DNA from: a virus
Direction: 5' to 3' (one strand)
IMG/VR virus record: IMGVR_UViG_3300014947_000001
DNA: 64,000 bases
The stretch's first letter is position 1. Each line of letters opens with the position of its first letter. This document shows, piece by piece, positions 10,260 through 62,930 of this stretch. The position numbers and the translations under genes were made by a program. The notes beneath the pieces were generated by a model, which was given only the letters and a program-made list of their open reading frames with translations, did not search any database and had not been told where the DNA came from.

Positions 10260-12062
10260 ATGAAATCATTGGCAAAGAAACTCAGTTTAATCTTTGTAGG
10301 CATCGTCTTAGTCACCTGTATCGTTCTTATCACGTTTGCAGGGTTAGCTTTTAATCGATTAGAGCGGACCTCAGAGGAAATTCTTTATGAGACAACATTG
10401 AATGGATATAAAACAGAGATCAAAAGTGAAGTCCAAGGAGCAGTATCCGTTGTTCGTGGGTTTTATGATTCCTACAGAAATGGAATCATAACAGAAGACA
10501 TCGCAAAGAGTGAAGCAAAAGAAGCGTTACGCAATATGCGGTACGGTGATGATAATTCCGGTTATTTTTGGATTGATGATACAAACTATAACCTCGTTAT
10601 GCATCCAATCCTTTCAGAACAGGAAGGAACGAACCGGAAAGATCTTGAGGACAAAAATGGAGTTAAGATCATTCAGGAAATCATGAAAGTTGCAGATAAT
10701 GGTGGATATAATGAGTTTTATTTCACAAAATCAGACGGCAAAACAGTAGCCCCAAAAGTAGCGTATTCTTTATCGTTTCCAGAATGGAACTGGGTGATCA
10801 CCACTGGCGTATATACAGATGACATTCAATCAATATTGTCTTCTTCCGCAGAGATAACGCGTACAAAAGCAATAAGCCGTAACAGTATCATATTTATGAT
10901 AGCGATTGGTGTTGTTCTTTATATATTAATGTTCTTCTTTTGTTTGTTTATCTGCAAAAAGCTCGTCTTGGTTATTAATCAGGTAAAGGAAAATTTAAAC
11001 AGTATCGCAGACGGTGACCTAACCGGACGGATTGACGGTAAGATCCTAAACAGAAAAGATGAACTCGGAAATATTGTAGTTCACACAAATAAAGCAGTCG
11101 AATCGTTCTGCAATAGCATTGCAACATCAAAACAGACTGCCATTACCGTGAACGAAAACAGTGCTGAAATATCCGGACTCGCAAACAGTGCTCTCGAAGC
11201 GACTGCTCAGGTTGCGGAAGCGATCAGTAATATAGCCGGAGATGCGACAACACAAGCAGGTGTCGTAAGTGATGTTGTGAAAAATATTGATACAATGAAC
11301 TGTAACGTCGAAGAAGTAAGTAATTCCGTTGACGACATCAGTCATTATGCGTGCGAATTAAATGAAGCCAGCGAAGACATGAAAGATAAAATGGATGCAA
11401 TGTCTAAAGGCAGCATGCAGATGTCAACACAGATTGAAAATATTTACAATCAGATTATGAAGACAACAGAGTCTATCAACAAAATGCAAGATGTATTAAA
11501 TGTTATCCAGGATATCGCTTCCCAGACAAACTTATTGAGTTTGAACGCAAGTATTGAAGCAGCAAGAGCCGGTGACAGCGGTCGTGGATTCTCTGTAGTA
11601 GCTTCTAATATTCGGGAATTATCAGAAAATACATCAAAAGAATTAAGTAATATTCGAGATATTATTGGAGAGCTCACTTCAAGTTTCGAAGAATGTAACG
11701 CTTCTATTGATACCGTCGTTGGTACAAATAAACAAAATGCTGAATACACAGGTCTGGTGATCAATTCATTTGATACTGTATTCGATGATATTAAGAATAC
11801 GAATGAAAATGTTTCTCATGTAACCACACTTACAAAACAGATTAGTGACATGATGAACCAGATCGCAGAGGGTATTGAAACCGTACAGCGAGGTGCTGAA
11901 AGTACAGCAGCTGCAACCGAAGAAGTTACGGCTTCCAGTGAAGAATTAAACGCTCTGATGCATAATATTACAGAAAACTGCAGGATCATGACAACCGAAG
12001 CCGAAAGTATGGTTGTGGATCTTAGTAAATTCAAGCTGGAAAAAGAAACAAAAACTGAATAA
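10260..12062 (+). CDS. methyl-accepting chemotaxis protein (Cache-like sensor, HAMP)
   Basis: Two transmembrane segments; Cache-like periplasmic domain; conserved signalling motif [32 protein letters not shown]. Confidence 0.9.
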
Positions 12063-12155
12063 CCATATACTTGATCCAGTGGATTCTCATTAATCGGAAA
12101 CGAAAAATGGGAAACTGCTGGATTTTCTTCATATTTTTGTATACTTTTTGTAAGT

Positions 12156-12189
12156 TTCCTGACGAGGTTTCCGAAAAGTGAGCCTGTTA
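12156..12189 (+). promoter_or_regulatory. Family-1 motif
   Basis: ttcctgacgaggtttccgaaaagtgagcctgtta. Confidence 0.5.
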
Positions 12190-12224
12190 ATAGATGATAA
12201 AACAAAAGAAAGGCAGGACTTACA

Positions 12225-12509
12225 ATGTTATACACAAAGTGTGAAGACTGTGCATACGAAAACGGATGTTCCTTAAAAGAGGATACCGATGATCTTCGCG
12301 GATGTGCGGGTCATAGTAAACGAAAAGAACCGATCACGGCAGAGACGTTTATGGATATTCCTTTAACACCGGAAGAAAGCAGATTTGTAAAAGAAATCGC
12401 CGCAGATCTTTTAATACGAAAAAGAGCGGTTCCGGATGAGTCGGATCTATTGAAAGAGATTCTATATCGAGCAATGCTTGTCTCTGGATCCGAAGTACCG
12501 GAACACTAA
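12225..12509 (+). CDS. hypothetical protein
   Basis: RBS aaaggcaggacttacaATG. Confidence 0.4.
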   Translation: MLYTKCEDCAYENGCSLKEDTDDLRGCAGHSKRKEPITAETFMDIPLTPEESRFVKEIAADLLIRKRAVPDESDLLKEILYRAMLVSGSEVPEH

Positions 12510-12801
12510 AAATAGGAGGACTTTATTTATGACAAATCCATGGAGTAAGATCAAAGAGTTTGTACACGAAAACGACGGAAACACAGATGCAACGTTATCA
12601 TTGTCAATGGATGAATTACAAAATGGTAGGCAGAAAGCCCACGACTTTAGTCGTATGGATGAATGATTACCTCTAAACATTAGAAACAATAATAGAAACC
12701 AATAACAGAAACCAATAACAGAAACAAAATACAGGTCCAGACATAGACCTTTCGCTTGGAGAATAGATACATGGGTATTGAAATCCCATAAGTGATAAAT
12801 C

Positions 12802-12999
12802 TTGAAAACCTCAGATATATCCTGGTCTTCGTGTCAGGTGAAGCTGAGTAAATCTAAAGAATCCCATGGTTTTAACCGTTGGAGTATGTCAAAGTGGTTA
12901 ATTCAGGAACATATGGAAAACAGATCATTGAAACAAGTGATCGAAAAGAATTCCGATGAGAAACGTTTAGATAAGATTAGATATAGGAGACCGTTATGA
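12802..12999 (+). CDS. hypothetical small protein
   Basis: ORF only. Confidence 0.25.
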   Translation: MKTSDISWSSCQVKLSKSKESHGFNRWSMSKWLIQEHMENRSLKQVIEKNSDEKRLDKIRYRRPL

Positions 13000-13187
13000 T
13001 AGATAACGAAAACATGAAGTACAGCTTTATATTACAGGATTTAGATACCAACAAACGCATTTTCCTTGATTCGGTTACAGATCTTGGAAAACCAGGGGAT
13101 GAAACATATATCAGCATCCGCAAAGATGATGTTAAAACAAGACATCATGTAACTGTATTAGAACGAAAAACCATCAATCAAACATAA
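12996..13187 (+). CDS. hypothetical small protein
   Basis: RBS aggagaccgttATG; overlapping stop/start. Confidence 0.35.
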   Translation: MIDNENMKYSFILQDLDTNKRIFLDSVTDLGKPGDETYISIRKDDVKTRHHVTVLERKTINQT

Positions 13188-13205
13188 GCAAAAAGGAGAA
13201 AAATC

Positions 13206-13430
13206 ATGAAAAATAAAGGAAACGAAATCAAAGACAAAGTTAAAAAGTACATAAAAGAAAACCCGGTAGCACTATTCAGTACCATTTGTGTACTGTTTGA
13301 AATTGTTTGCTCTTGTGTTTTTATCGAGAGAACGAGTTTTGTTTCCTTTACAATTATGATGTTAACAACTTCTATCAGTCTGGAACTTCATGAGAAAATG
13401 CTTCCAGAGAATAAAAATAATTGGTTTTAA
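13206..13430 (+). CDS. small membrane protein
   Basis: RBS aaaaggagaaaaatcATG; one transmembrane segment. Confidence 0.4.
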   Translation: MKNKGNEIKDKVKKYIKENPVALFSTICVLFEIVCSCVFIERTSFVSFTIMMLTTSISLELHEKMLPENKNNWF

Positions 13431-13442
13431 GGAGGAATACCA

Positions 13443-13973
13443 ATGGCAAGTAGAGAACAATTGTATTGTGATTATATCACAGAACTTAAAATGTATAATC
13501 CGAATCTGATGTTTATGGATAATACTCGGATTTTTAAGAACTTCAAAGAGGTAAGCGCATTTTCAGACCTCGAGTGGCTCGATATCTATGATGGAGTTGA
13601 ATGCGTAGGCTTCATTTTGCTTACAAACGGATCGCATTGTCCTATAAATTATGATTGGTTTGTAATGGAATGCTATATTGATGCAAAACATCGCAGGAAT
13701 CACCTTATGAGACATGCAATGGATCAGGTGGTTCAGACACATCAAGGCAAAATTGGTTTGTTTATTCTGTGTCAGAATCTTGTAGCCAGTGCTTTTTGGA
13801 AAAATTACACATCAAGAACAACAATCTGGCCACATTTACAGTTAACAAAGATACCTATCATGAAAACATCCGTACCCAGTTCTGTTGACTGCTATGAATT
13901 AGCGTTCGAAATTAGTGACCAAAAAAGTTGCAGCCAGAATAAGCGAGCACAAACAATTCCGGCATACGAATAA
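13443..13973 (+). CDS. hypothetical protein
   Basis: RBS aaggaggaataccaATG. Confidence 0.5.
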   Translation: MASREQLYCDYITELKMYNPNLMFMDNTRIFKNFKEVSAFSDLEWLDIYDGVECVGFILLTNGSHCPINYDWFVMECYIDAKHRRNHLMRHAMDQVVQTHQGKIGLFILCQNLVASAFWKNYTSRTTIWPHLQLTKIPIMKTSVPSSVDCYELAFEISDQKSCSQNKRAQTIPAYE

Positions 13974-14015
13974 TCGGAAACGAAAACAAATACACATACA
14001 AAAGGAGATACCATT

Positions 14016-14591
14016 ATGAATTATGTACCATATGTTATAGACAATACAAACGGACACGAATATCACTCAGACTTATTTAGTCGTCTTTTAAGTTCCAGGA
14101 TCATTATTTTGAGTGGGGAAGTAGATGATGACATGGCAAGTCTTGCAGTTGCTCAGCTTTTGTACCTGGAATCTTTGGATCCGAATAAGGATATCCAGAT
14201 TTATATTAATAGCCCAGGCGGATCCGTTACAGCGGGTATGGCAATTTACGATACCATGCAGCATGTAAAATGTGACGTATCTACAATCTGTGTCGGATTA
14301 GCAGCTTCTATGGGCGCCTTTCTTTTAGCTGGCGGAACTTCCGGAAAACGATTCAGTCTTCCAAATGCGGAAATCATGATCCACCAGCCAAGTGGGGGCG
14401 CAAAAGGACAGGCTACCGATATTCAGATCGCTGCTCAGAATATCCAGCGTACGAAAAATAAGTTAAACGAATTGTTGGCAGCAAATACAGGACGTACCTT
14501 AGAAGAAGTTACATATGATACTGACCGAGACAACTTTATGAGTGCCGAAGAAGCTTTAGAGTACGGACTTATCGATCAGATCATCCAGTAG
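14016..14591 (+). CDS. clpP: ATP-dependent Clp protease proteolytic subunit ClpP
   Basis: Full-length ClpP with Ser (AASMGA) and His (IHQPSGG) catalytic motifs; high similarity to Bacillus ClpP throughout. Confidence 0.95.
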
Positions 14592-14663
14592 CAAACTGTA
14601 CAGCTTACAAAAGAAAGGAGGGCAGATAGAGACCGGAATTAACTGGTTTTTGTCTGCCTATGG

Positions 14664-15227
14664 TTGCCTATGAAACAATTTAGAAATGCATCAGATATTA
14701 CTGTAGATAGTTGTCCTATCGTAAAAGGCGGATACATTCAGCTTCCGGTTCCAATTGTGATATCCGAAGAATGGATGCAGGCTCCGTCTATTGCGGACGG
14801 ATACGATTCAAACGGAACCAGCGTATTATATCCGCTGCGCAGTTTTCAGATTACAGAAAATGATCTTCGTCCGTTCTTTGGTCGTACTATTTATGCAATT
14901 CCAGATGATGGTGTTTATTATTCGCATTTGGAACTGATCCGGCAGGATGTGATTATGGATTACGGGTATATGACCGACGCCGAGTTCCAGGATTTTCTTA
15001 CGGAAAGCGACGAATATATTGAGCGCATTACAAATCAGTATTCTGCGATTAGTGACTTATTAATCACGCGCATTTGGAATTATCGCCTGTTTGAACGAAA
15101 TAAAACAACCGGGCGCTACTTAGACGCATACAAAACATTGTGCACGATCAGTGTTCTACAGTTATTACTGATCATTTCTGTGAACACTCCTAAATTTAAC
15201 CTGAGTATCTGTTTTGAAGAAACATAG
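14664..15227 (+). CDS. hypothetical protein
   Basis: ORF of 187 aa. Confidence 0.4.
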   Translation: MPMKQFRNASDITVDSCPIVKGGYIQLPVPIVISEEWMQAPSIADGYDSNGTSVLYPLRSFQITENDLRPFFGRTIYAIPDDGVYYSHLELIRQDVIMDYGYMTDAEFQDFLTESDEYIERITNQYSAISDLLITRIWNYRLFERNKTTGRYLDAYKTLCTISVLQLLLIISVNTPKFNLSICFEET

Positions 15228-15246
15228 ACGAAAAAGGAGAATTCCA

Positions 15247-15888
15247 ATGAGTTCAAAGACAATAAAAGAATTCTACAAAGAAAAGGTTACAAAAGAAGGC
15301 ATGATGGAAGAGGATGTAAGGAAATCTAATAGTACATTCTACACAAATAATTTTGAAGCTGTTAGCCGATGGAGAAAGAAGTACCTATCAGAATACGCTC
15401 CAATTCCGGAATTCAAAACCAATATATACATATATGGACCTGGTGGTATAGGAAAAACAGTTGCGTCTCAGGCAGCTGCAAAAAGTTTGTTTCCGGATGC
15501 AGTAAATCCATATTTTCAAACATTTGCGGAAACCAGAAATTTGAAATGGTATGATGGACAGCCTGTTATCATCTGGGATAACTGCATGAGTTCTGATCTG
15601 CTGAGAATGTTTGGGCGTCAGAAATTGTTTGATATTTTGGATACACAACCAACGGACACAAAATGCAAAACAAATTCAGGATCGGTTCGTCTTGTAAACT
15701 CAATCAACATTATCAACAGTATAGAACCGTATGATGTGTTTTTGGATGGATTATGCAAAAGCAAGGAAGACAAAGATCAGGTATGTAAATTGTTTCCGAT
15801 TATTATGGAACTTCATGAGGACGATTACGATATTCTCTACAACACAGACTTGTTTTCAAGTATATTAAGGAATCAAAGTAATAGATAA
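15247..15888 (+). CDS. P-loop NTPase (SF3-helicase-like)
   Basis: RBS aaaaggagaattccaATG; Walker A YIYGPGGIGKT, Walker B VIIWDN, downstream Asn (motif C-like). Confidence 0.5.
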   Translation: MSSKTIKEFYKEKVTKEGMMEEDVRKSNSTFYTNNFEAVSRWRKKYLSEYAPIPEFKTNIYIYGPGGIGKTVASQAAAKSLFPDAVNPYFQTFAETRNLKWYDGQPVIIWDNCMSSDLLRMFGRQKLFDILDTQPTDTKCKTNSGSVRLVNSINIINSIEPYDVFLDGLCKSKEDKDQVCKLFPIIMELHEDDYDILYNTDLFSSILRNQSNR

Positions 15889-15962
15889 GAGAGCGTCAAC
15901 TCTCTTCTTATCCTTATCCTCATCCTTATTCTCAAAAAATGTATTCCTTTGCAAATTGGTCG

Positions 15963-15974
15963 CCCATATTTAAT
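15963..15974 (+). promoter_or_regulatory. Family-2 motif
   Basis: ctttgcaaattggtcgcccatatttaat. Confidence 0.35.
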
Positions 15975-16330
15975 ACTGAGCAAACAGGTAAGCTGTTTGT
16001 AAAGTAGATTTATTCATATCTGAACTGTAATCCTAAAGGTGTTATAGCAGTTCGCCGGTTTTATTCATTTTCCGGTCCATTGTAGCACGTGAGTACATCT
16101 TATCGACAGGAACACGTGGTTATGAATCTGCATACTGGTTCATAACACATCATAATCATTGCTGACACACCGATGCGAATTGACGCGGGGACCCAATGTA
16201 GAGATGATTATTATGGCACCTCCTTTCGTATACGTCAGGATTTGTATACTAACCTTTGTTTTCTTATACGTTGCATCGTGTTTGGATACACTTCCTGGCG
16301 TTTTTTTGTTCTTGGAGACAGTATGTAAAA

Positions 16331-16340
16331 CCCATATTTA
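16331..16340 (+). promoter_or_regulatory. Family-2-like motif
   Basis: aacccatatttataaac ~40 nt upstream of the 16380 start. Confidence 0.35.
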
Positions 16341-16379
16341 TAAACAACAAATATTTTAAATCATAAAGGAGAAAACAAC

Positions 16380-17366
16380 ATGAAAAACAACATGAACGAA
16401 ATGAACGACGAAATGGAAATCACTTTAAATGAAAGCTATACGTTTCCTGTGATCTCAAAAGAATCTTTCATGAGACTGGCTGATATTGCAGCTTCCACAA
16501 TCAAAACTTTGGAACCAAAGTTTAAGGAGATCAAAACTGATTTTAACGAAGGAATCATGCTTATCGTTGCTAATACGTCGAATGTGATGACGGCAAAAGC
16601 CGACCTGAATGGATTGTATGACAAATTCTGTCGTGTTGAAGAGTTATCCGCAAATACTCAGATGTCATCGGAGAAACGATTGGAATATCAGATTAACAAA
16701 ATCTCTTCCATGATTGCTGGTTTATTGAGTAAAACATTATCTGGCTTTCAGTCTATGAAAGATTACAATACTTCTGAGCTTGATCAGTATCTCGATTATG
16801 AAAATGCAAGAGAAAGACTGATTGCAGTACCTGTCAATATGGACGACTTTGATAAAACAAAGTTCGTCTGCAAAGAGGTTGCTCCTGGTATTGGGTATAC
16901 TGCAAAAATCCTTATCTCTGATAATAAAACGGATTCTGTCACTGCACTGGTTACAAACGAAATGGCAAAAGATTATGGTGTAAGTTTAGAGGAACTTATG
17001 AGCGCCGCTCTTACAAATACCATGGTTATGTTCCCGGCAGTAAAAGAAAACGTTACAGAGAAAATGGGATTCAGAGGATATGCAATAAATGCAGGGTCTT
17101 ATGCAAATGGAGCGATCGCAACCTTTTATCCTGGCGTCTTAAAAACTGTTGCCGAACAGTTAGAAACCGAAAAGATAATCGTTTTCTTAAGCAACAAACT
17201 TGAGGCGATCTGCATTCCGGTTGCAGGAGTTGACGATTCCCTTGTTCTTGGTATCATGAGTACACTTCTTAATTCTGTGAAGAAGTACGCTCCGCATACG
17301 TTCTTTTCTAATCGGATTTACTCTTATGACAGTAGTGTAGACAGATTGAAACTAATGGTGTTTTAA
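16380..17366 (+). CDS. hypothetical protein
   Basis: RBS aaaggagaaaacaacATG; 328 aa. Confidence 0.5.
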   Translation: MKNNMNEMNDEMEITLNESYTFPVISKESFMRLADIAASTIKTLEPKFKEIKTDFNEGIMLIVANTSNVMTAKADLNGLYDKFCRVEELSANTQMSSEKRLEYQINKISSMIAGLLSKTLSGFQSMKDYNTSELDQYLDYENARERLIAVPVNMDDFDKTKFVCKEVAPGIGYTAKILISDNKTDSVTALVTNEMAKDYGVSLEELMSAALTNTMVMFPAVKENVTEKMGFRGYAINAGSYANGAIATFYPGVLKTVAEQLETEKIIVFLSNKLEAICIPVAGVDDSLVLGIMSTLLNSVKKYAPHTFFSNRIYSYDSSVDRLKLMVF

Positions 17367-17378
17367 CTAAAACAAAGC

Positions 17379-17423
17379 AAACCATCTATCGTACTCGGTA
17401 GGTGGTTTTCTTTATGTTCGTTT
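17379..17423 (+). terminator. rho-independent terminator (G.U-wobble stem, strand-specific)
   Basis: aaaccatctatcg-tact-cggtaggtggttt followed by tctttatgttcgttt. Confidence 0.6.
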
Positions 17424-17434
17424 GCAGATGTGAC

Positions 17435-17448
17435 TTACATATTTAAGG
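17435..17448 (+). promoter_or_regulatory. Family-2 motif
   Basis: tttgcagatgtgacttacatatttaagg. Confidence 0.45.
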
Positions 17449-17484
17449 TAACCGATAATCATGCAAATAAAGGAGGAAAACACA

Positions 17485-18036
17485 ATGAGAAAGATGATCA
17501 ACGCGGTGTCATTTTTGGCAATGTTGAAAGAAAAATGCTATTATGTCAGTGCTTTTGGTGAGAACGCAGAACTTGGTATCAAATACACTGATATTGAAAA
17601 ACTTGTAAACGAATTACCGGATACAAACGAAATTAATCAAGATGCTGGAACAACGAATGTTTCGTTTTCTGAAGATGGAAAGTGCTTAACAGAGTATAGT
17701 TCTGAAGAAAACTTATCCTATATTGTTCCGGATAATGTTGAATCTATTGGACCGTTTGCCTTTTCTGGTATTAGAAAACTAGAAATGATTCAGTTTTCAA
17801 ATAATGTTAGAATCATTCATTACCACGCTTTTGCGAGTTGTCCAAATTTGCGATGTGTTGCATTGCCTGATAATTTACAGGAAATTGGATTTGAAGCGTT
17901 CAATCATTGTTATAATTTAGATTCCGTAATTTATAAAGGTATCAAATATCAATCCAAATTCGTGCTCGAAAAAGTACTAAAAGATAATGGAGTCCAAGTT
18001 GGGTATGCTGTATTTGATAACACGGACCTGGACTAA
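17485..18036 (+). CDS. LRR-family protein (short member, BspA-type repeats)
   Basis: RBS aaaggaggaaaacacaATG; motifs SIGPFAFSG..L..I.F; C-terminal YKGIKY like the large LRR paralogs. Confidence 0.55.
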   Translation: MRKMINAVSFLAMLKEKCYYVSAFGENAELGIKYTDIEKLVNELPDTNEINQDAGTTNVSFSEDGKCLTEYSSEENLSYIVPDNVESIGPFAFSGIRKLEMIQFSNNVRIIHYHAFASCPNLRCVALPDNLQEIGFEAFNHCYNLDSVIYKGIKYQSKFVLEKVLKDNGVQVGYAVFDNTDLD

Positions 18037-18045
18037 AACAAAGCA

Positions 18046-18088
18046 AACCATCTATCGCCTCCGGTAGGTGGTTTCTTTATGTTCGTTT
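18046..18088 (+). terminator. rho-independent terminator (duplicate of 17379)
   Basis: aaaccatctatcgcctccggtaggtggttt followed by ctttatgttcgttt. Confidence 0.6.
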
Positions 18089-18100
18089 GCAGATGTTGGT

Positions 18101-18111
18101 TCCATATTTAG
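18101..18111 (+). promoter_or_regulatory. Family-2 motif
   Basis: tttgcagatgttggttccatatttagaataacc. Confidence 0.45.
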
Positions 18112-18147
18112 AATAACCACTAATCAAATCTTAAAGGAGGATCTACA

Positions 18148-18732
18148 ATGAAGAAAATATTAGAAATCGAATCAAGTAAGTACAGTATCGAATACGAGGA
18201 AGGTAAAGAATGGATTTATAGTGTTAAACGCTACGGAGTTGATACCGGAAGCGACCTAAAGACGAACATCGTATTCGATATGTTTCAGATGATTCTTAAT
18301 TTGCAGGCAAAGAATGAAAAGCTGAAAATGACACAGGAGAATTCATCATCCAGAGTAGCGATTACAAGCGATGGGAAAGTGTTACGTGCTTTTTCAGATG
18401 AGGAGGCTACGTCTTATTCGATTCCGGATGGAGTTACAACGATCGCTCAAAGAGCGTTTTCCGAATTGGAAAATCTTAAATCTGTTGACATCCCAGATAG
18501 CGTTCAATTTATCATGCAGAATGCGTTTGAAGACTCAGGCTTATCCAGTGTCGTTTTGCCAGCCAATATAAAAGTAATTGATGAGTACGCTTTCTTTTTC
18601 TGCCAAAAGTTATCGTCTGTAGGATACAAAGGAGAGATATATACTTCTATTTCTAAGCTCGAAAAGGCTTTAAAAGAAAATAGAGTAATAATAGGATACC
18701 ACTCATTTGCCTCAACCGCTTTAGCCTTGTAA
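18148..18732 (+). CDS. LRR-family protein (short member)
   Basis: RBS taaaggaggatctacaATG; IPDGVTTIAQRAFSELENLKSVDIPDSV; C-terminal YKGEIYT. Confidence 0.55.
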   Translation: MKKILEIESSKYSIEYEEGKEWIYSVKRYGVDTGSDLKTNIVFDMFQMILNLQAKNEKLKMTQENSSSRVAITSDGKVLRAFSDEEATSYSIPDGVTTIAQRAFSELENLKSVDIPDSVQFIMQNAFEDSGLSSVVLPANIKVIDEYAFFFCQKLSSVGYKGEIYTSISKLEKALKENRVIIGYHSFASTALAL

Positions 18733-18738
18733 AAAAAT

Positions 18739-18778
18739 CAAACCATCTATCACATCGGTAGGTGGTTTCTTTATTTTC
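18739..18778 (+). terminator. rho-independent terminator (third copy)
   Basis: aaaccatctatcacatcggtaggtggttt followed by ctttattttcg. Confidence 0.55.
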
Positions 18779-18798
18779 GCATTTCTTTGTAATCACTC

Positions 18799-18812
18799 CG
18801 CACATATTTAAT
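18799..18812 (+). promoter_or_regulatory. Family-2 motif
   Basis: tttctttgtaatcactccgcacatatttaatc. Confidence 0.45.
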
Positions 18813-18881
18813 CATAGTGTTCGAAATAAGTCTTTTTCGACGATCATTTTACAAGAACACAAAGAGAAGGAGATAAAAAAT

Positions 18882-20195
18882 ATGAGAAAACAAAAGGTAA
18901 TTACAGTTGTTTTGGCATCCGGTATGTTGATTGCATGTTTTTCTGGATGCGGATTTGAAAAGGTTACAGCAGAAGACCTCGTAAATAATGCATGCAATAT
19001 GGACGCAATCGAATCTTTGGATGCCGACATAGCTCTCGTGATGGATGTCGATGTCGATGCAACTTCATTATTTACACCGTATAACGCAGACGAAGATTCT
19101 GATTCCGGCAGCGACTCAAAATCAAATACAAAGATGAATATCACACTTGATGCTGACTGCAATGCAAAAGCTGCAAATGATCTGGCGTATATCAGTGGCA
19201 ACGTAGAAGCCGGAATCTTTGGAATGACTTACAATGTTAAGGTTGAAAATTATACGGACGCCCAAAATGGTGTTTCTTATTCCTATGACAGCGATTCCGA
19301 TGTCTGGGTGAAATCAGACCTCGAAGATGATTCAGATTCACTCGACTTAGAAACATTAAAACAATATGTATCGTCAGACATTTTTGAAGATCTTGTTCTG
19401 GTAAACGAAAAAGATAAGAAAGCAGAAACTTATGAAGTAACCGGAACGATATCTTATGACAGTATTGCTGATCTGCTTGGTGATAAGGTTGACGATATGT
19501 TTTCTGGATTCGATCCAAAAGGCATGACTCTGGATGCCGCAATGAACTTTGACCGGAAAACAAAACAGTTAGAGACTATGAAGGTTTCTGTCGATCCGGA
19601 TTCTATGAATACCGATGTACTCGATATCAATGAGTTTTCAATCACTGTTACCATCAACAGTCTTAAAGATGTTAAACTTGAGATTCCAAAAGATGTAAAA
19701 GATAATGCGATCGAAGAAGGTTCTTCTACCATTGATGACGATGACTTTTTGATCGATGATATGGAAGTCTACCCGGAATGGTCAGAGACAGAAGACGACG
19801 AATTTGGTATGGAAAGCTCTGAATCCGAAGCTGCTGAATCCGAGAATCAGACATCCCAGTCTACAGACGGTCAGACTTTAGCTCAGTTTTATTTCGAAAC
19901 CGATGATCTTTCGTTTTCAGATGTAAAGGAGATTTTGTCTGCTTATTACAATCAGATCGGCGACATGGATCCGCAGGCGATCGCTTCGTTTGCAACATTC
20001 ATGAACAACTATACATTTGATACATTCGACGCAACCCTTGACACATACGAAGATTGGGCATCAGAAGATAAGATTGCACTTGCTATTATGTATGACCTCG
20101 GGATCGTAGACGACGAACTGTTATCAGAACATAATGTTAGCCTGGACAGTGTGAAATCATATATAGGAATCTATGTAAGCCCGTACGAATCATAA
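18882..20195 (+). CDS. acidic lipoprotein
   Basis: RBS agaaggagataaaaaatATG; lipobox IACFSGCG; Asp/Glu/Ser-rich. Confidence 0.6.
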   Translation: MRKQKVITVVLASGMLIACFSGCGFEKVTAEDLVNNACNMDAIESLDADIALVMDVDVDATSLFTPYNADEDSDSGSDSKSNTKMNITLDADCNAKAANDLAYISGNVEAGIFGMTYNVKVENYTDAQNGVSYSYDSDSDVWVKSDLEDDSDSLDLETLKQYVSSDIFEDLVLVNEKDKKAETYEVTGTISYDSIADLLGDKVDDMFSGFDPKGMTLDAAMNFDRKTKQLETMKVSVDPDSMNTDVLDINEFSITVTINSLKDVKLEIPKDVKDNAIEEGSSTIDDDDFLIDDMEVYPEWSETEDDEFGMESSESEAAESENQTSQSTDGQTLAQFYFETDDLSFSDVKEILSAYYNQIGDMDPQAIASFATFMNNYTFDTFDATLDTYEDWASEDKIALAIMYDLGIVDDELLSEHNVSLDSVKSYIGIYVSPYES

Positions 20196-23295: not shown

Positions 23296-24711
23296 ATGAA
23301 ATGGAAAACATTAATAGGTTTATTTCTTTTTGCGATAACATTGATAGTGATATCTTTTGATGATACCACTATTTTTGCTGACGATACAGTAAACCAACCT
23401 CTGTTTACCATTACAATTCCAAAACAGCTTACGATTGATGCTGACAAATGCGTAGAATACCAGGTTTGCGTACACAGGAATAGAACCAATGCTGGTACAG
23501 TAACCGTTATCCCGGATACGGAAGTAGTGTTATCAGACAGTAAAGGAAAAGCTGACGTTACCGGACAAGTGGCTCAAGATCAGACGCAATTTGAGTTTGC
23601 AGCAGACGGAGCCGATGAACAGGTAACAAATGGAACTGTCACCGCAAATGACTTAACGGCAGGAGACTGGACTGGCGCTTTCAATTTTAAAATCGATATG
23701 CAGGAAACGAAAATTGGTGACGATATAACATTAACCAGTGACAATCTTGCAGTTTATAACATATCAACATCCGGCGACGTCGTAATTCCTGAGTATGTAA
23801 CAGATACCGGCGGAGTCAAACATAAGGTTACTTCTATTAATGAATATACTTTTGGCGGCTGTTCTGAAGTAACATCCATAACGATTCCGAAAAGTGTGAC
23901 ATCCATAGGTAATTGTGTAGTTTCTGATTGCGATAAATTGGTTTCAATTATTGTGGATTCTGAAAATCCTGTATACGATAGCAGAAACAATAGCAACGCA
24001 ATCATTGAAACTGAGACAAACCGATTAATACAGGGATGTAACACTACGGTTATTCCAGAAACCGTTACAACAATTGGGCAGTATTCATTTAGTTATTGTA
24101 ATTTACTCGCTACCATTTCAATCCCAGATAGTGTGAAATCTATTGAGAAAAGGGCTTTTGATTCTTGCGAGAATTTAACCTCAATCACAATACCAGACGG
24201 TGTGACAAGTATTGACAGTGATGCATTTGCATGGTGTTCCAATTTAACATCAATTTGTATTCCGAATAGCGTTACCCATTTAGGTGGCTATTTGTTTTAT
24301 AATTGCACGTCACTGACATCAGTAACGCTTCCAGAAAATATAGAATCGATTCCTGGTGGAACATTTGATGGATGTCAAAGTTTAGCATCCATTACAATTC
24401 CGAATAGTGTAACATCGATTGGAAGTGATGCGTTTTACGGTTGTAAACAATTGACATCTATAGATATCCCAAATTCGGTTACAATATTAGGTTCCTTCTC
24501 TATTGCAAATTGTACCGGATTAACATCTACTTCTATTCCGGATAATATTACTTCTATTGGAGAACGAGCATTTGGAAGCTGCACGAATCTTTCATCAGTT
24601 ACTTATAAAGGAAATACGTATACAAACAAAACTAATATTGAAACGGTACTTGCGGAAAATAATGTTGCTCTCGAAAACGTAATATTCGACAATACAGCAT
24701 TATCTGAATAA
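23296..24711 (+). CDS. BspA-type leucine-rich-repeat surface protein
   Basis: Signal peptide; family N-terminal domain; ~12 LRRs of the form L(T/A)SI.IP.SVTSIG..AF..C; ends YKGNTYT. Confidence 0.75.
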   Translation: MKWKTLIGLFLFAITLIVISFDDTTIFADDTVNQPLFTITIPKQLTIDADKCVEYQVCVHRNRTNAGTVTVIPDTEVVLSDSKGKADVTGQVAQDQTQFEFAADGADEQVTNGTVTANDLTAGDWTGAFNFKIDMQETKIGDDITLTSDNLAVYNISTSGDVVIPEYVTDTGGVKHKVTSINEYTFGGCSEVTSITIPKSVTSIGNCVVSDCDKLVSIIVDSENPVYDSRNNSNAIIETETNRLIQGCNTTVIPETVTTIGQYSFSYCNLLATISIPDSVKSIEKRAFDSCENLTSITIPDGVTSIDSDAFAWCSNLTSICIPNSVTHLGGYLFYNCTSLTSVTLPENIESIPGGTFDGCQSLASITIPNSVTSIGSDAFYGCKQLTSIDIPNSVTILGSFSIANCTGLTSTSIPDNITSIGERAFGSCTNLSSVTYKGNTYTNKTNIETVLAENNVALENVIFDNTALSE

Positions 24712-24764
24712 TGTTTTCATCAATAAAGTGGATTCTTCTTTTCGTTTCCTCTGTCCATGTTCAG

Positions 24765-24777
24765 ACCATATTTATCT
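24765..24777 (+). promoter_or_regulatory. Family-2-like motif
   Basis: gaccatatttatc ~50 nt upstream of the 24829 start. Confidence 0.35.
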
Positions 24778-24828
24778 TGTTACTCGTGAACAATTTATAC
24801 TGAACACAAAGAAAGGAAACGAAATATT

Positions 24829-26406
24829 ATGAAACGAAAAGCAGTGAGTTGTCTGCTTGTTCTGGCTGCGATCATGACGATGACGCCTACGATTCCAACA
24901 ATGGCAGCCGAAAACCCGGACAACACAACACAGGAAGCAACAACGACAGGAACTCAAGGAGCTACTATTACATATCAACAGGATTCCGCTTTTACCGTCA
25001 CCATTCCGAAGACGATCACATTAGGACAGAATAAGAGTGCAACCTATGGCGTCAAAGTAAAAGGTGACATTTCTGGGAATGAAACGGTTACCGTTACTCC
25101 TGATGCCACCATGCAGTTGACGGATTCGAATGGAAAGGCTGCGGTTACTGGAACAATTACTCAGGATGTTACAGAGTTTGCAGCCACAGAAGTGAATCTT
25201 CCAGATGGCAATAGTACAACTGGTAACATTGAAGCAAACGAACTTACGTCGGGAGACTGGTCAGGAAATTTTGAGTTTGCGATCGGTGTCAATAAAGAGT
25301 TAATCGCTGGACTTTATGACGCAGATGGAAAGATGGTTTGTACTTGGGAAGAGAGTGGAATCGATATCGAACAAGATTACACAGACTCATCTGGGAACAA
25401 TCCTTACACAACAACAACATCATCTGCTTATTATGTAATTACGAATAATTTTCCAACAGCTACATCTGTTGTTATCCCAGACGGTATCACCCACATTGGA
25501 AGTGAAAATTTTGATGGTTGTAAAAATATATCATCTATTGCGATTCCAGACAGCGTAACAAGTATTGGTAAATATGCATTCCAAGAAACAGGTATTACCA
25601 ATGTTGATATACCTGATAGTGTAACATCTTTTGGTGATGGTGTGTTTTGTAATTGCTCTAATCTTACAAATATTTCAATTCCAGAAGGTGTAACAAGTAT
25701 TGGATTTGGTGTATTTAAAGATTGCACTGGATTAACCTTAATTACAATACCAGACAGTGTAACAAGTATTGGAATTAGCACATTTAATAATTGTAACTCC
25801 TTAACATCCATTACGATACCAGATAGTGTAACAAGTATTGGAAATGCAGCTTTTTTTGGATGTGAAAAACTTGCAAATATCACAATCCCAGACAGTGTAA
25901 CAAGCATTGGACATCAAGCATTTAATGGTTGCAAAGGCTTAACATCCATTACAATACCAGATGTTGTAACAAGTATCGGGAGAGGCACATTTTGGGGATG
26001 TTCTAGCTTAAACTCAATCACAATACCAGACAGTGTGACAAGTATTAATAGTAATGCATTTAATGGTTGCAAAGGCTTAACATCCATTACAATACCAAAC
26101 GGTGTAACGAATATTGAAGGTGCCGCATTTAAAGGATGTTCAGCATTACCATCAATCACAATACCAGATGGCGTAACAAGCATTGGATATAGTGCATTTG
26201 AGGGTTGTAAAGGTTTAATATCTATTACAATACCAAACGGTGTAACGAATATTGGATATTATGCATTTAATAGTTGTTCAAACCTTGCATCTGTAACCTA
26301 TAAAGGACAGACCTACACAAGCATATCAGCACTAACAACAGCACTGAAAAATGATAAAGTAAAAATGGAATGGGATGTATTTAAAGGCACAGCCTTAACC
26401 AATTAA
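24829..26406 (+). CDS. BspA-type leucine-rich-repeat surface protein
   Basis: Signal peptide; N-terminal domain [17 protein letters not shown]; ~14 LRR units [11 protein letters not shown]; ends YKGQTYTS. Confidence 0.8.
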
Positions 26407-32816: not shown

Positions 32817-32972
32817 ATGGATGAACACAGAGAGGAAATCATTCATGAGGAACCATGCCGGGAGATGTTATGGTTTCAGGAGCTGGCACAACAAGACCAG
32901 AACGGATATACAGTAAACAAAACGAAAGTGAGAAAGATATTAGAGTACATATTACGGAGGATGAAAAATGAA
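32817..32972 (+). CDS. small protein (51 aa) translationally coupled to the sigma factor
   Basis: RBS gaaaggagggattgcATG; its stop overlaps the sigma start (ATGAATAG); absent from ORF track. Confidence 0.35.
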
Positions 32973-34929
32973 TAGCTACACCGAAGCAGTACAAAAAGCA
33001 ATGAAAGGAGACCAGGAAGCGTATACGTACCTGTATGAGAAAACGTATACGAAATGTTTTTACCTGGCGAGGAAGTTTTTAAACAGCGAGCACACAGCAC
33101 AGGATATCGTTCAGGATGCCTATGTGAAGGCTTTTAAGTCTCTGGATACCTTAGAAGACCCGGAGAAGTTTCAGTCATGGATCGGAACGATTGTGTCGAA
33201 CCTTGCCAAAAACGAACTGAAACGAAGAAAGGTAACCTTGTTCTCTGAAACAGAAAACGAAGACGGACAGGATATCAGTGATACCTTTGTGGATGACCGT
33301 GTGTCTGTTCAGCCGGAAGTCGTTATGGATCAGAATGAGACAACGAGACTGATGAAAGAGATCATTGATACTTTGACAGATGAACAGCGCATCTGTGTCA
33401 CAATGTTCTATATGGAACAGATGTCTGTAAAAGAAATGGCGTCCGTGCTTGAAGTATCAGAGAACACCGTTAAGAGCCGCCTGAATTATGGCAGACAAAA
33501 GATCAAAGACAAAGTATTAGACCTCGAAAAGAAAGGTACCAAGCTTTATGGTCTTGCTCCGATTCCATTCTTCCTGTTGCTGCTTAAAGAGGACGTCAAA
33601 GCGGCACAGGCAACACAGATTCCGTCAATGTCGGCTGCAGTGTCTTCAGCAACCAAAGCAGTTGCAACCGCAGCAGGAACCGGAAGTACCGTTGCCGGAA
33701 CAACCGCAGCCACAGTAGCAGCAGGCGCCGGAAAGGGAATCGCAACAAAGGTGATCGCAGGCATTGTCGCCGGAACGCTTGTTATCGGAGGTGGAGCAGC
33801 AGCGATTGTGCATATGCAGGGGCAGAGCGGAAATCATTATAAACTTGCAAAATCAATTTCAGATTTACCTGACTGGGCGTATGATAGTACAAATGGATTA
33901 AAATATATAAGCATTCAAGATTATAAATATCCAATTAGTTTAATTTTAGATTATGATAAGGATATGGTGGAGCGTGGCGAGGTTAAGTATTATTCCAATC
34001 CAGGTCATACAGGATATGAAGGAATGAAATGTGATCCAAAAGTTTGGTATTTTGGAGAATATAATGGACGTATCTATTATGTGGATAGAGCTAATACAGA
34101 GAATCTACGTTATCATTTATACCGTGTGCCAAAAGCTTCTGATTATGATTTATATTTAGAAGATTCAGATACTTATATGGCTTCTATATTTAATGATCTT
34201 AATGCAAGAAGTTCAGATAGTTTTTTATTTACATATGATGAAGATGAACATAATCAATATGTTGCGATTGAGGATATGATCAATTCTGACGGCTATAGTT
34301 TTGATGAATGGTACTGCATTACAGAAGATGACCTTATTCCGGATGCTGTAGATGCATACAATGATTGGGTTGCAAATGGGGAGGCAGAGATGAATGCCAT
34401 ATATGCATCCCATATCACTGTAACAGAATCAGTCCCGGAAACAGAAACAGAAACCGAAGAAGTAGTGGAAGAAGTAACTGAGGAACCGACAGAAACGGCT
34501 CCGGAAGAAACAGAAGTACAGGAAGCAGAAGGGGAGACCGTTGATCAGAGCGGAAATATTCCGGTTCCGAACTATACGCCAACTGGCAATTTCTGGAATA
34601 CACCTGGTTCTTACTCAAGCAATGATGGACAGACATTATCATTAAGCATGTTTACGGAAGACGGTGGAGTAGAAGGATGGTGCGGAAACATAAATGGCGG
34701 ATCAGTAGGTTCTCTGGAAGTCTTCAATTATGGTGATAAGATCTATTATCTGAAGAAAGCAGACAGTTCCTATTCGAATTTCACAGACAGCGGATATGCA
34801 TTTACTTTGGAACCGTCCGGAGAAACACTTGACATTTATGGGGAAACCTATGATATAATACTTTTGAAGTTGTACTATAATGGTGTACTTCAAGGAGAGT
34901 ACTATGAAACAGACCTCTATCAATCATAA
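32968..34929 (+). CDS. ECF-type sigma-70 family protein fused to a transmembrane segment and large C-terminal extracytoplasmic domain
   Basis: Region 2 (DIVQDAYVKAF..FQSWIGTIVSNL); region 4 (EQRICVTMFYMEQMSVKEMASVLEVSENTVKSRL); Ala/Gly/Thr-rich transmembrane segment ~aa 215-265; ~380-aa C-terminal domain. Confidence 0.75.
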   Translation: MNSYTEAVQKAMKGDQEAYTYLYEKTYTKCFYLARKFLNSEHTAQDIVQDAYVKAFKSLDTLEDPEKFQSWIGTIVSNLAKNELKRRKVTLFSETENEDGQDISDTFVDDRVSVQPEVVMDQNETTRLMKEIIDTLTDEQRICVTMFYMEQMSVKEMASVLEVSENTVKSRLNYGRQKIKDKVLDLEKKGTKLYGLAPIPFFLLLLKEDVKAAQATQIPSMSAAVSSATKAVATAAGTGSTVAGTTAATVAAGAGKGIATKVIAGIVAGTLVIGGGAAAIVHMQGQSGNHYKLAKSISDLPDWAYDSTNGLKYISIQDYKYPISLILDYDKDMVERGEVKYYSNPGHTGYEGMKCDPKVWYFGEYNGRIYYVDRANTENLRYHLYRVPKASDYDLYLEDSDTYMASIFNDLNARSSDSFLFTYDEDEHNQYVAIEDMINSDGYSFDEWYCITEDDLIPDAVDAYNDWVANGEAEMNAIYASHITVTESVPETETETEEVVEEVTEEPTETAPEETEVQEAEGETVDQSGNIPVPNYTPTGNFWNTPGSYSSNDGQTLSLSMFTEDGGVEGWCGNINGGSVGSLEVFNYGDKIYYLKKADSSYSNFTDSGYAFTLEPSGETLDIYGETYDIILLKLYYNGVLQGEYYETDLYQS

Positions 34930-53546: not shown

Positions 53547-54227
53547 TTAAAATCGACCTAATCTGACCGATACATCACAAATACTATCTTCGAGCTTTTC
53601 TTTAATTCGCTTTGCGCATTCCTCTTTGTCTGTATCAGATATTTTTGTTGGATCAGGATATTCTTTGTTTAATTCCCTGCAAACGTACTCTGCTTTTTGT
53701 CCGAGTTTGTATCCTTTTTCTTTGTATCGTTTGTAATCAGGAGCAATATCAATTGAATTTGAATCAAATACGGTCCAGGTATTATAACCTTTGATTAACA
53801 AAGCAACACAGAAAACAAATACAAGAATGATCGTCACGTTGATGTTAATGAACAACATCGGCGATAAAAACAGGGTGATTATTGGAATTAAGATCCAGGA
53901 AGTAATGATTCTGAATTTTTCCTGTTTATTCAAATATTGTAATAAATCCTCTGTCATTCTTGTACAACAATGTTCGAATCGATTTTTGTCTTGATCACAA
54001 TAAATGAAAATATTATACTGCTTGAAATCGTTAGGGACTGAAACAAATCTTTTAGCTACCAGTTTCGGCAAGAAATATTCGATTGCGATCGCTGCTACAA
54101 TAATCATAACGGGACCGACACATAATCCGAGTAACTTTAAGATCAATCTAAGGGTCTCGAAATACCCCATGCCGTCTGCGTGTTGCAACTGGTTAATAAT
54201 TTTTACAAGTTCGTCTGTTTGAAACAT
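53547..54227 (-). CDS. MFxTEEL-family membrane protein, paralog 1 of 4
   Basis: N-terminus MFQTDELVKIINQLQHA; three to four transmembrane segments. Confidence 0.6.
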   Translation of the reverse strand: MFQTDELVKIINQLQHADGMGYFETLRLILKLLGLCVGPVMIIVAAIAIEYFLPKLVAKRFVSVPNDFKQYNIFIYCDQDKNRFEHCCTRMTEDLLQYLNKQEKFRIITSWILIPIITLFLSPMLFININVTIILVFVFCVALLIKGYNTWTVFDSNSIDIAPDYKRYKEKGYKLGQKAEYVCRELNKEYPDPTKISDTDKEECAKRIKEKLEDSICDVSVRLGRF

Positions 54228-54267
54228 AATACTTTTCTCCTTTTCTTTTGATGGTTTATTTGTTACG

Positions 54268-54280
54268 TCTTAAATATGTG
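54268..54280 (-). promoter_or_regulatory. Family-2 motif (minus strand)
   Basis: Plus-strand cttaaatatgtgc = gcacatatttaag on the minus strand, ~40 nt upstream of the 54227 start. Confidence 0.4.
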
Positions 54281-54458
54281 CCCGATATTAATGGAGAAAC
54301 CGGTGTTCTATATGATAAGTTGGGCACAAAAATACCGGATGCTAACACACTCATACGGAAACAAAATATCAGGGAACAAAAAGTATTGCTAAACTGATTA
54401 ATCGATTTACTTTCTTTTTGTTCCCATAAATATTCGTTTCCGATAATTCTATCGTTTA

Positions 54459-55157: not shown

Positions 55158-55196
55158 ATATAATCTCCTTTCGTTTCCTCTGACTTAACTATTCAT

Positions 55197-55230
55197 AATA
55201 AGGCTCAAAATACCGAAAACTCGTCAGGAA
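55197..55230 (-). promoter_or_regulatory. Family-1 motif (minus strand)
   Basis: Plus-strand aataaggctcaaaataccgaaaactcgtcaggaa. Confidence 0.5.
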
Positions 55231-56016: not shown

Positions 56017-56055
56017 AGATAATCTCCTTTCATTTCCTCTGATTTAACTATTCAT

Positions 56056-61715: not shown

Positions 61716-62930
61716 TTAAACTAATTCTGATTCTGTGACCGAATGGATTACGATCTTCTTTTTCTTACATCCACCGATCAACCATGCAGTGTACTGTTTA
61801 ATTACCTGGTCTCGGATGCTACTATCTAACATTCTACATCCGTAAACTCCATTCGCAAACTCATGTAATTGTGTTCGCATATCTGCATCCAGTTCGATCG
61901 GTAACTGATAGGCTAATCTCAGCGTTTCCAGTGTTTTGTCAATAATCTTGTCGACTGCCTCTTCAGATAACTTATGATAGTTGACAATCAAAGGGAAACG
62001 ACCAATCATTTCGTAACTTGCCCCCATTTTAATCATATCTTCTCTTGTGATCTCATCGAACATATCATTATCCTGGGTTCTGGCTCCGAATCCTAAATTA
62101 TTCTTTGCCGCATTCTTTTTCTGCTCTCTGGATTCATTAAACGAACCTAAACCAATAAACATCGTATTGGATGTATCAATATAATATCCAGTTGGCTGAC
62201 CATTCAAAATAAACGGAACTTCACGACCTTCAATAATAGTTAATAACTGATTTTGGACCGCAGCAGATGTGTTTGCTCCTTCTGCAAATGAAGGAATCAG
62301 TTTCTTGTCGAATTCATCCATAAATACGATTCCATAACCATTTGTGCCATTCTCCATGAGCTCATCTACTAGTATCGAACTTCCGGCACCAACAATGCCT
62401 TCTTCCGTAATCACAGATACATCTACTTGTGAGATTGTAAGCTCTGGAATCTCTGTTTTAAAATAATTGCGGAGTGACCGGTATGTTTCTGTTTTTCCGC
62501 AGCCAGATGGAGCAGCCATAAGCATATTGTTATTCACTGGGTTCCCAAGAGCAACGTTTGTGAGATAGTTATATACGTTTGCAAGTATTAAATCGAGATT
62601 GTCCTGTCCTATAACATCTTTGTGAATTGTGTTTCGAAACTCTGTAAACGGAACACGACCAAGCCATTCCTTAATGCTGAGTTTTAAATCCTCAATCTGT
62701 TCTGCTGTGTAATCATCTTCATCCATCATCATATTTGGATCTATATCGCCAGACATTAGCTGAATTAAAAACTGCTGTGGCTGTTCGGAAACCATTTCTT
62801 TCGGATCCTGTTCTTTTGTTTTTTCGGTTGGTTTCTTTTCTTTCGGATCCTTTTTTGTCGGTTTCTTGGCTTCGTTTGTTTCTACTTCTGTTAATTTCTT
62901 ATTTGTGAGTGATTCGTTTTTCGGTTCCAT
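61716..62930 (-). CDS. ClpX-like AAA+ unfoldase lacking the zinc-binding N-domain
   Basis: Walker A APSGCGKT, Walker B GIVFMDEFDKK, IGF-like loop NLGFGA, ClpX C-domain EDMIKMGASYEMIGRFPLIVNYHKLSEEAVDKII; Lys/Glu-rich N-terminus. Confidence 0.8.
   Translation of the reverse strand: MEPKNESLTNKKLTEVETNEAKKPTKKDPKEKKPTEKTKEQDPKEMVSEQPQQFLIQLMSGDIDPNMMMDEDDYTAEQIEDLKLSIKEWLGRVPFTEFRNTIHKDVIGQDNLDLILANVYNYLTNVALGNPVNNNMLMAAPSGCGKTETYRSLRNYFKTEIPELTISQVDVSVITEEGIVGAGSSILVDELMENGTNGYGIVFMDEFDKKLIPSFAEGANTSAAVQNQLLTIIEGREVPFILNGQPTGYYIDTSNTMFIGLGSFNESREQKKNAAKNNLGFGARTQDNDMFDEITREDMIKMGASYEMIGRFPLIVNYHKLSEEAVDKIIDKTLETLRLAYQLPIELDADMRTQLHEFANGVYGCRMLDSSIRDQVIKQYTAWLIGGCKKKKIVIHSVTESELV

Follow-up and report, generated by a model that had tools for sequence, protein, structure and literature searches.

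A Bacterial-Type ClpP and a ClpX-Fold ATPase without Zinc-Binding Domain, Encoded in Trans on a Giant, Putatively Mobile Element of the Human Gut

Introduction

The DNA analyzed here (hereafter the window: a stretch of 64,000 nucleotides from IMG/VR virus record IMGVR_UViG_3300014947_000001) carries two components of a Clp-type protease, a bacterial-type ClpP and an AAA+ ATPase with the ClpX fold. The interpretation that we prefer, with a probability of roughly 0.45, is that of a trans-encoded Clp-type protease with a non-canonical choice of substrates, which is not demonstrably insulated from the Clp system of the host. The carrier is proposed to be a giant (~0.4 Mb) element of extrachromosomal type from human-gut Lachnospiraceae-like bacteria. 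Three points are new here: a partner ATPase from Lachnospiraceae that lacks both the zinc-binding domain (ZBD) and the RKH loop, an isoleucine in pore-1 in its clade, and a lineage-specific gating hairpin in ClpP. Clp genes on giant phages and plasmids have often been annotated but never explained, and the present case is both unusually tractable and unusually common. The main features are:

13443..13973, + strand: GNAT-like acetyltransferase, 176 aa, 42 nt upstream of ClpP; weak Acetyltransf_1 match (22.4 bits)
14016..14591, + strand: ClpP proteolytic subunit of bacterial type, 191 aa (Pfam, NCBIfam, alignment with S. aureus ClpP)
14670..15227, + strand: orphan protein, 185 aa, downstream of ClpP, with 78 nt up to its ATG at 14670
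61716..62930, - strand: ClpX-fold AAA+ ATPase, 404 aa (motifs, PDB search, AF2 model, Foldseek); Walker A at residues 141-147, pore-1 G178-I-V-G181, Walker B at 205-209, docking tripeptide L279-G280-F281, Arg finger at 310-312, sensor-2 at 364-366
62727..62930, - strand: coding region of the N-terminal ~68 residues of the ATPase, Cys-free, Lys/Glu/Pro/Thr-rich and predicted to be disordered, in place of the ZBD

The ClpP Subunit

An initial annotation of this DNA, made from the sequence alone, had described a canonical ClpP with an intact triad, and this description is correct. The protein matches Pfam CLP_protease (PF00574) with 275.8 bits (cut-off 20.2) over profile positions 3-180 of 182, and NCBIfam NF001368 with 311.7 bits, above the cut-off of 249; the TIGR00493 equivalog is narrowly missed (302.7 bits vs a cut-off of 308.6). 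Its alignment with S. aureus ClpP (4mxi) is free of gaps from 1-190 to 1-190, and the catalytic triad, S98/H123/D172, is invariant across the sequences of alignment A3. With a full-length match above the curated cut-off and a complete triad, it belongs to the MEROPS S14 ClpP family. Since it is 75% identical to P0240, a chromosomal Clostridia ClpP from a canonical tig-clpP-clpX-lon operon, it is of the bacterial housekeeping type.

One region departs from this pattern. The canonical N-terminal axial hairpin (EQTSRGERSYDIY; EQTSR-GERSYDIY in the chromosomal enzyme) is not present in the element ClpP lineage: in alignment A3, both of its arginines are replaced and two histidines are gained, the start of the helix that follows the hairpin is also altered, and the catalytic core is invariant between element-type and chromosomal ClpPs. 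The signature is common to element-type ClpPs down to 76% identity and is absent from chromosomal ClpPs. This is variation between lineages and provides no ground for excluding the element protein from the ClpP family. On the same alignment, the residues that we take to form the docking site of ClpP show conservative changes only. The N-terminal hairpins of ClpP gate the pore and touch the ATPase (PMC9035409), and the apparent remodeling of this gating hairpin in the element lineage is a new point.

Four metagenomic ClpPs in alignment A3 (P0216, P0218, P0222, and P0226) look chimeric, one half being element-type and close to the window protein and the other half chromosomal-type. They may be either assembly chimeras or the products of real recombination between element and host clpP; if they are assembly artifacts, both types of clpP co-exist in the samples concerned.

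The ATPase

The second protein has the Walker A (PSGCGKT) and Walker B (DEFDK) motifs and the IGF-type loop for which it had first been singled out, together with an Arg finger (GRF) and a sensor-2 motif (GCR). A PDB sequence search returned ClpX first (E = 2.8e-17), and in the alignment LGFGA stands exactly opposite IGFGA of E. coli ClpX and TEEGIVG opposite TEAGYVG; the same loop aligns to IGFNA of a Clostridia ClpX. In ClpX, the IGF loop docks into the hydrophobic sites of ClpP (PMC9035409).

In the profile searches that had been suggested, PF00574 was matched by ClpP, and the ATPase matched AAA_2 and AAA, the only Pfam families that it hits, but not ClpB_D2-small. The conserved ClpX C-domain that had been claimed is therefore found at the fold level, where Foldseek of the AF2 model backs a C-terminal small AAA+ domain, and not as a Pfam match. 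This model, based on a 24-sequence family alignment, has a mean pLDDT of 80.2, with residues 4-68 below 50 and predicted to be disordered. Its best 50 Foldseek matches in the PDB are all ClpX chains (E down to 5.6e-19, target TM-scores 0.69-0.79, ~24% identity). The best NCBIfam matches are also ClpX equivalogs, but far under their cut-offs (NF003745, 81 bits vs 359; TIGR00382, 73.5 bits vs 370.75). By these curated thresholds the protein is not a ClpX orthologue.

ClpX recognizes and grips its substrates via the ZBD, RKH, pore-1 (Tyr153), and pore-2 elements (PMC9035409). The ZBD is indeed replaced by a Lys/Glu-rich segment, as initially annotated: there is no Pfam match to zf-C4_ClpX (PF06689) in the ATPase, no cysteine occurs before residue 144, and residues 1-70 are dominated by K, E, P, M, and T. 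Compared with a canonical Clostridia ClpX (438 aa, ZBD present, tig-clpP-clpX-lon operon; 28% identity), a deletion of 5 residues that coincides exactly with GGRKH removes the RKH loop, the pore-2 loop has 3 residues fewer, and pore-1 reads GIVG instead of GYVG, with Ile for the pore-1 Tyr. The ATPase thus appears to retain the motor and the ClpP plug without any canonical ClpX recognition device. Altered substrate selection had been proposed because the ZBD is missing; with the RKH loop and the pore-1 aromatic residue gone too, the change is likely to be larger still. The Tyr-to-Ile replacement could also mean that the ATPase is a poor translocase.

Within the 5′ coding region of the ATPase, positions 62795-62883 contain an imperfect tandem repeat of 42 nt (2.1 copies, 77% match), which encodes the Lys/Glu/Pro/Thr-rich N-terminal segment; the sister proteins P0020 and P0021 differ in length at this place. 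Therefore, the low-complexity N-terminus may expand and contract by repeat slippage.

The ATPase Family

The ATPase belongs to a large, uncharacterized family, with 673 matches at E<1e-10. Its members are named "AAA family ATPase" or "ATP-dependent protease Clp ATPase subunit" in their sources, which are Lachnospiraceae MAGs and the isolates Lachnospira multipara, Pseudobutyrivibrio sp. LB2011, and Eubacterium sp. MSJ-21. A motif census was taken from an alignment of 120 members, 28 from the clade of the window protein (≥55% identity) and 92 more distant. Conservation of the machinery, the Walker A PSGCGKT included, is close to complete, with the Walker B DEFDK in 116/120, the Arg finger GRF in 119/120, and the sensor-2 GCR in 114/120. 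The ClpP-docking tripeptide, [ILVMF]-G-[FL], is found in 117/120, and because a flexible loop is otherwise hard to conserve so well, it is likely to be ClpP-binding.

The absence of a zinc finger is also a family trait, since the first 120 residues contain at most one CxxC motif in each of the 120 proteins. The region N-terminal to Walker A varies from 62 to 344 residues, and some of the long members have a distinct N-domain of ~200 aa in common. The RKH deletion spans 7-11 residues in the four other members displayed. At the pore-1 position, Ile occurs in 27/28 proteins of the window's clade, and each of the 92 more distant proteins has F or Y; the isoleucine thus appears to be a derived feature of the element lineage.

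Relatives at 37-49% identity are scattered over unrelated Lachnospiraceae settings, where ClpP is missing from the surrounding 10 kb and nothing else is shared with the window; they include copies in chromosomal islands of cultured Lachnospira multipara and Pseudobutyrivibrio. As most members lack a nearby ClpP, the family does not need the element ClpP, and to judge from these gene neighborhoods, it must as a whole presumably work with ordinary host ClpP or without any ClpP.

Gene Neighborhood, Co-Residence, and Selection

The ClpP gene had been said to sit alone among accessory genes. This is true in that no ATPase gene adjoins it, but it lies within a conserved GNAT-ClpP-orphan triad, which is kept in three diverged lineages (window 13443-15227, L035 9484-11207, L128 9454-11212). 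In the sister ClpP loci, a GNAT of 176 or 160 aa is found upstream and an orphan of ~188 aa downstream every time. Good ribosome-binding sites precede the GNAT and ClpP genes, and there is no terminator-like site on the + strand between 12000 and 15887. The L035 GNAT is 69% identical to that of the window, and the L128 orthologue carries a Pfam Acetyltransf_1 match; no sequence relative of the window GNAT was found in the PDB. Homologues of the orphan are confined to this element lineage, and its AF2 model (pLDDT 84.6) has no match with E<0.5 among PDB folds in Foldseek. PADLOC, applied to the ATPase, ClpP, and their neighbors, found no defense system: there was a weak generic AAA+ overlap (DolB, 37 bits), and the other nine proteins gave nothing. 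An acetyltransferase that adjoins a protease recalls the phage GNAT Rac, which triggers cleavage of host RNAP alpha, as quoted in PMC7824862.

ClpP and the ATPase are not co-transcribed, as their genes lie 47.1 kb apart in the window and on opposite strands. They do occur together on one molecule, and this co-residence has been observed on two, the window and scaffold MERR22-1_SAMEA4969186-S001_METAG-scaffold_9 (ERZ28616600, 409,469 bp). The latter carries ClpP at 170,118-170,693(+) and an ATPase 99% identical to that of the window at ~220.9-222.1 kb(-), with a spacing of ~50 kb and the same relative orientation.

Each gene is also conserved in sister lineages. ClpP has 82% identity in L035/L036 and 76% in L128, with local synteny kept, and in L035 it is the best-conserved of the genes in common (82% vs 25-69% for the others). 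The sister ATPase in L119 (78% identity) lies in a block that reads UvrD … 145-aa gene … ATPase … Band_7 … paralogue array … dUTPase. For ClpP and the ATPase alike, pN is 0.12-0.17 and pS is saturated at ~0.75; because non-synonymous divergence is low while synonymous sites are saturated, both genes are maintained by purifying selection.

One Protease or Two Independent Genes

According to the reading that we prefer, the element would carry two Clp components in trans, each with its own transcription and each conserved on its own. The first would be a bacterial-type ClpP, predicted to be catalytically competent, with a gating hairpin remodeled in the element lineage. The second would be a hexameric unfoldase with the ClpX fold, in which the ATPase machinery is preserved along with an [I/L/V/M]-G-F loop for the hydrophobic sites of ClpP. 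It would have lost the ZBD and the RKH loop, part of the pore-2 loop and, in the clade of the window protein, the tyrosine of pore-1, which has become Ile. Via LGF, the ATPase would dock on ClpP rings, whether the element's own, those of the host, or mixed, and would feed them a narrow, non-canonical set of substrates, chosen by its disordered Lys/Glu-rich N-terminus or by an unknown adaptor. A pore with a weak grip would favor loosely folded or already unfolded proteins. The element might thereby gain a degradation channel with its own specificity. The identity of the genes, their motifs and fold, their co-residence, their conservation, and the purifying selection on them are observed; physical docking between ATPase and ClpP, the choice of partner, and the substrates are what we infer here.

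Several lines of evidence argue for such a trans-acting protease: the canonical ClpP with its intact triad, the restriction of the 50 best structural matches of the ATPase model to ClpX chains, the alignment of LGFGA to IGFGA/IGFNA with the tripeptide present in 117/120 relatives, the presence of both genes on scaffold_9 in the arrangement of the window, their persistence with synteny in diverged sisters at a pN of 0.12-0.17, and the axial hairpin signature that the ClpP lineage has of its own. Other observations point away from it. The two genes lie on opposite strands with 47 kb between them, the ATPase family mostly lacks a nearby ClpP, the conserved operon partners of ClpP are the GNAT and the orphan rather than an ATPase, co-residence is known from two molecules only, and the pore-1 replacement could make the ATPase a poor translocase. 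The 75% identity of the element ClpP to chromosomal ClpP makes its cross-docking with host partners likely. The "private" ClpXP-like pair that had been postulated is not supported: the two genes are separate transcription units, and relatives of the ATPase occur without a ClpP within 10 kb. Likewise, we find no support for the substrates that had been suggested for it (a repressor and an anti-sigma domain).

The foremost competing explanation, which we regard as rather unlikely, is that the two genes are independent. ClpP would be an auxiliary subunit that serves the unfoldases of the host (ClpX, ClpC, ClpE) or joins host ClpP rings, maybe directed by the GNAT or the orphan, and the ATPase would use host ClpP, as its many relatives on Lachnospiraceae chromosomes presumably do. 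This would account for the GNAT-ClpP-orphan triad in three lineages, with its short gaps, its good ribosome-binding sites for GNAT and ClpP, and the lack of a + strand terminator-like site from 12000 to 15887. It would also fit the high identity to chromosomal ClpP and the conservative changes on its presumed docking surface, as well as the ATPase relatives without any nearby ClpP; for a role of the GNAT, Rac and the host protein cleavage quoted in PMC7824862 offer a precedent. However, both genes are retained together in the element backbone, and a hairpin that has been remodeled and has lost both arginines would be odd in a subunit that only plugs into unchanged host partners. Moreover, the GNAT match is weak (22 bits) and the orphan has no recognizable fold.

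It is less probable still that the ATPase is a ClpP-independent remodeling chaperone, acting on initiator, recombinase, or transposase complexes or in the assembly of element structures. ClpX itself remodels MuA, and the products of the window include an integrase, a TnpB, and a protein that resembles DnaD or a replication initiator. A weak grip is suggested by the pore-1 Ile, and translocase or assembly roles have been proposed for the ClpX/ClpA of jumbo phages (Iyer et al., PMC7824862). Without ClpP, however, the docking tripeptide would be dispensable, and it is kept in 117/120 family members.

A bolder form of the trans-acting protease, which we consider equally improbable, is an orthogonal one. 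The arginine-free, histidine-rich ClpP gate and the reduced motor would be co-adapted and insulated from host adaptors, ssrA tagging, and host unfoldases, with the GNAT possibly marking substrates by acetylation. If this were true, a giant gut element would have an addressable degradation pathway of its own; if the two proteins only add to host ClpXP, the story is an ordinary one of auxiliary genes.

The Element and Its Host

The gene content of the window supports a mobile or accessory element rather than a housekeeping clp locus, in agreement with the initial annotation. The window encodes TnpB, a tyrosine integrase, a Bro-N protein, a PIF1-like helicase, an SSB-like protein, the DnaD-like or replication-initiator-like protein, a dUTPase, and an ECF-type sigma factor with a long tail; further genes specify an MCP, BspA-type LRR proteins, a DUF5688 protein, an ATLF-like peptidase, and an SPFH protein. 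Neither terminase, portal, and capsid genes nor T4SS genes were detected among its 75 ORFs by Pfam and PHROGs, and there is no tRNA and no Rfam family in the window. Megablast of positions 12000-20000 gave no match in either the phage or the plasmid collections. The pointers to its class, plasmid or phage, are the DnaD-like or initiator-like protein, the integrase, and, in sister loci, an actin-like ALP_N partition gene, which would favor a plasmid.

Public assemblies, most of them from the human gut, contain the exact ClpP sequence in 3,514 index blocks. It lies on at least 1000 contigs, none of them above 1 Mb; among the matches listed, the longest contig has 469,570 bp and none exceeds 0.47 Mb. 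Two IMG/VR contigs carry the ATPase region. The GC content of the window is 33-42%, with a mean of ~38%; it is 27-30% in the Jug jumbo gut phages (PMC12880540) and 44.6-47.1% in the Hodor megaplasmids (PMC12934698). Both identities were discarded on GC, and genes for a sortase or for giant surface proteins were not seen in the window. The HiBC megaplasmids were also rejected, and the MODIFI preprint offered nothing that applied.

The initial annotation had named as its refuting case a region that is no mobile element and holds the host's own chromosomal clpP and clpX. This case is very improbable. Around the window genes there is no tig-clpP-clpX-lon synteny, whereas the 75% identical ClpP has it along with a ZBD-bearing ClpX. 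In addition, the scores of the ATPase fall far short of the ClpX equivalog thresholds, mobile and accessory genes crowd the window, which has almost no housekeeping content, and part of the element is in IMG/VR, with no ClpP contig above 0.47 Mb among those listed. It is hardly credible that ClpP is instead a ClpP-related phage prohead (head-maturation) protease, for although its best PHROG matches carry the annotation "head maturation protease," it scores 99.8 bits with NF045542, below the cut-off of 120, vs 311.7 bits with bacterial ClpP, it keeps the full N-terminal gating region without gaps vs S. aureus ClpP, and none of the 75 ORFs of the window is a capsid, portal, or terminase gene.

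Comparison with Known Clp Systems

With the bacterial ClpXP of E. coli, N. meningitidis, and Firmicutes, the window shares essentially the same ClpP enzyme and an ATPase that has the ClpX fold, with its motifs in the same order, an IGF-type loop in the homologous place, an Arg finger, and sensor-2. It differs in that the ATPase is only 24-28% identical to ClpX, has no ZBD, a deleted RKH loop, a pore-2 loop shortened by 3 residues, and GIVG for GYVG. Furthermore, the genes are unlinked instead of forming a tig-clpP-clpX operon, and the ClpP hairpin lacks both arginines.

Jumbo phages encode ClpP, ClpX, ClpA, and ClpS (PMC7824862), and Atu_ph07 alone encodes seven Clp-family proteins (PMC6102473). 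By tblastn, ClpX-annotated genes with 25-32% identity to the ATPase were found in phages G, Lak, SCTP-2, and Callisto and on plasmids. In IMG/VR, a canonical-type ClpX lies within 10 kb at 34/80 ClpP loci, and the alignments start in the zinc-finger region. Since the jumbo phages and these IMG/VR loci already display Clp genes, the idea of an element-encoded ClpXP is not new. Like the window, the carriers of the jumbo-phage genes (Atu_ph07, Bacillus phage G, Lak, SCTP-2, Callisto; groups 1, 2.2, and 3 of Iyer et al. 2021) are giant mobile genomes with their own ClpP and/or ClpX-like ATPases, whose functions are predicted. Unlike them, the window has its partner at a distance, from a separate, ZBD-less Lachnospiraceae family that is 25-30% identical to phage ClpX, and it contains no phage structural genes.

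The solved structures that match the ATPase best are those of ClpX-deltaN constructs. This engineered protein likewise lacks the N-terminal domain and keeps ClpP docking, which in the ATPase is a prediction. ClpX-deltaN retains RKH, pore-2, and Tyr153, so it still recognizes ssrA tags; the natural ATPase is also without RKH, a full pore-2, and the pore-1 Tyr. HslU (ClpY) offers another parallel, as the ATPase likewise lacks a ZBD and falls within the ClpX/HslU clade of AAA+ unfoldases, but it has no I-domain and bears an IGF-type loop in place of the C-terminal docking tail of HslU. It scores 38 bits with the HslU model (cut-off 362), and no HslV is present.

The ATPase family can be regarded as a natural "minimal ClpX," reduced to a motor and a ClpP plug, and the ClpP as an enzyme whose gate has been rewired. 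From the two one could learn how substrate choice and the matching of ATPase and peptidase evolve, and how an element of ~0.4 Mb manipulates proteolysis in abundant gut Firmicutes.

Other Features of the Element

A methyl-accepting chemotaxis protein with Cache and MCPsignal domains is encoded at 10260-12062 (+), and several BspA-type LRR surface proteins at 23296-26406 (+). The presence of the former implies a motile host, which fits Lachnospiraceae and not Bacteroides. The ECF-type sigma factor at 32968-34929 (+) has regions 2 and 4 in residues 1-182, fused to a C-terminal extension of ~470 aa that has no domain match; a separate sigma-70-type factor of 342 aa is found in neighboring parts of the element (L027/L029). 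At 53547-57818 (-) there is a tandem array of five paralogous genes of ~226-242 aa, with no Pfam or PHROG annotation. It sits downstream of the SPFH/Band_7 gene (57840-58796), and its copy number varies (3 in L119). Band_7 is the best-conserved gene of its block, with 89% identity in L119.

In the 710-bp gap that directly follows the ATPase stop codon lies a mini CRISPR-like array (61298-61521, - strand), unique in the window. Four direct repeats of 36 nt (GTTATAGACCCTGGyTATTTCCAGGTAGCGTATACC) with an internal palindrome, the one nearest the ATPase being degenerate, are separated by spacers of 20, 30, and 30 nt. No cas gene accompanies the array in the window (TnpB only), and the spacers match nothing in IMG/VR but the element's own array. 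The same three spacers are present in 13 copies of the element. However, L122 has one extra spacer of 30 nt at the ATPase-distal end of the array and a different spacer is found in L029, so that spacer content varies between copies of the element.
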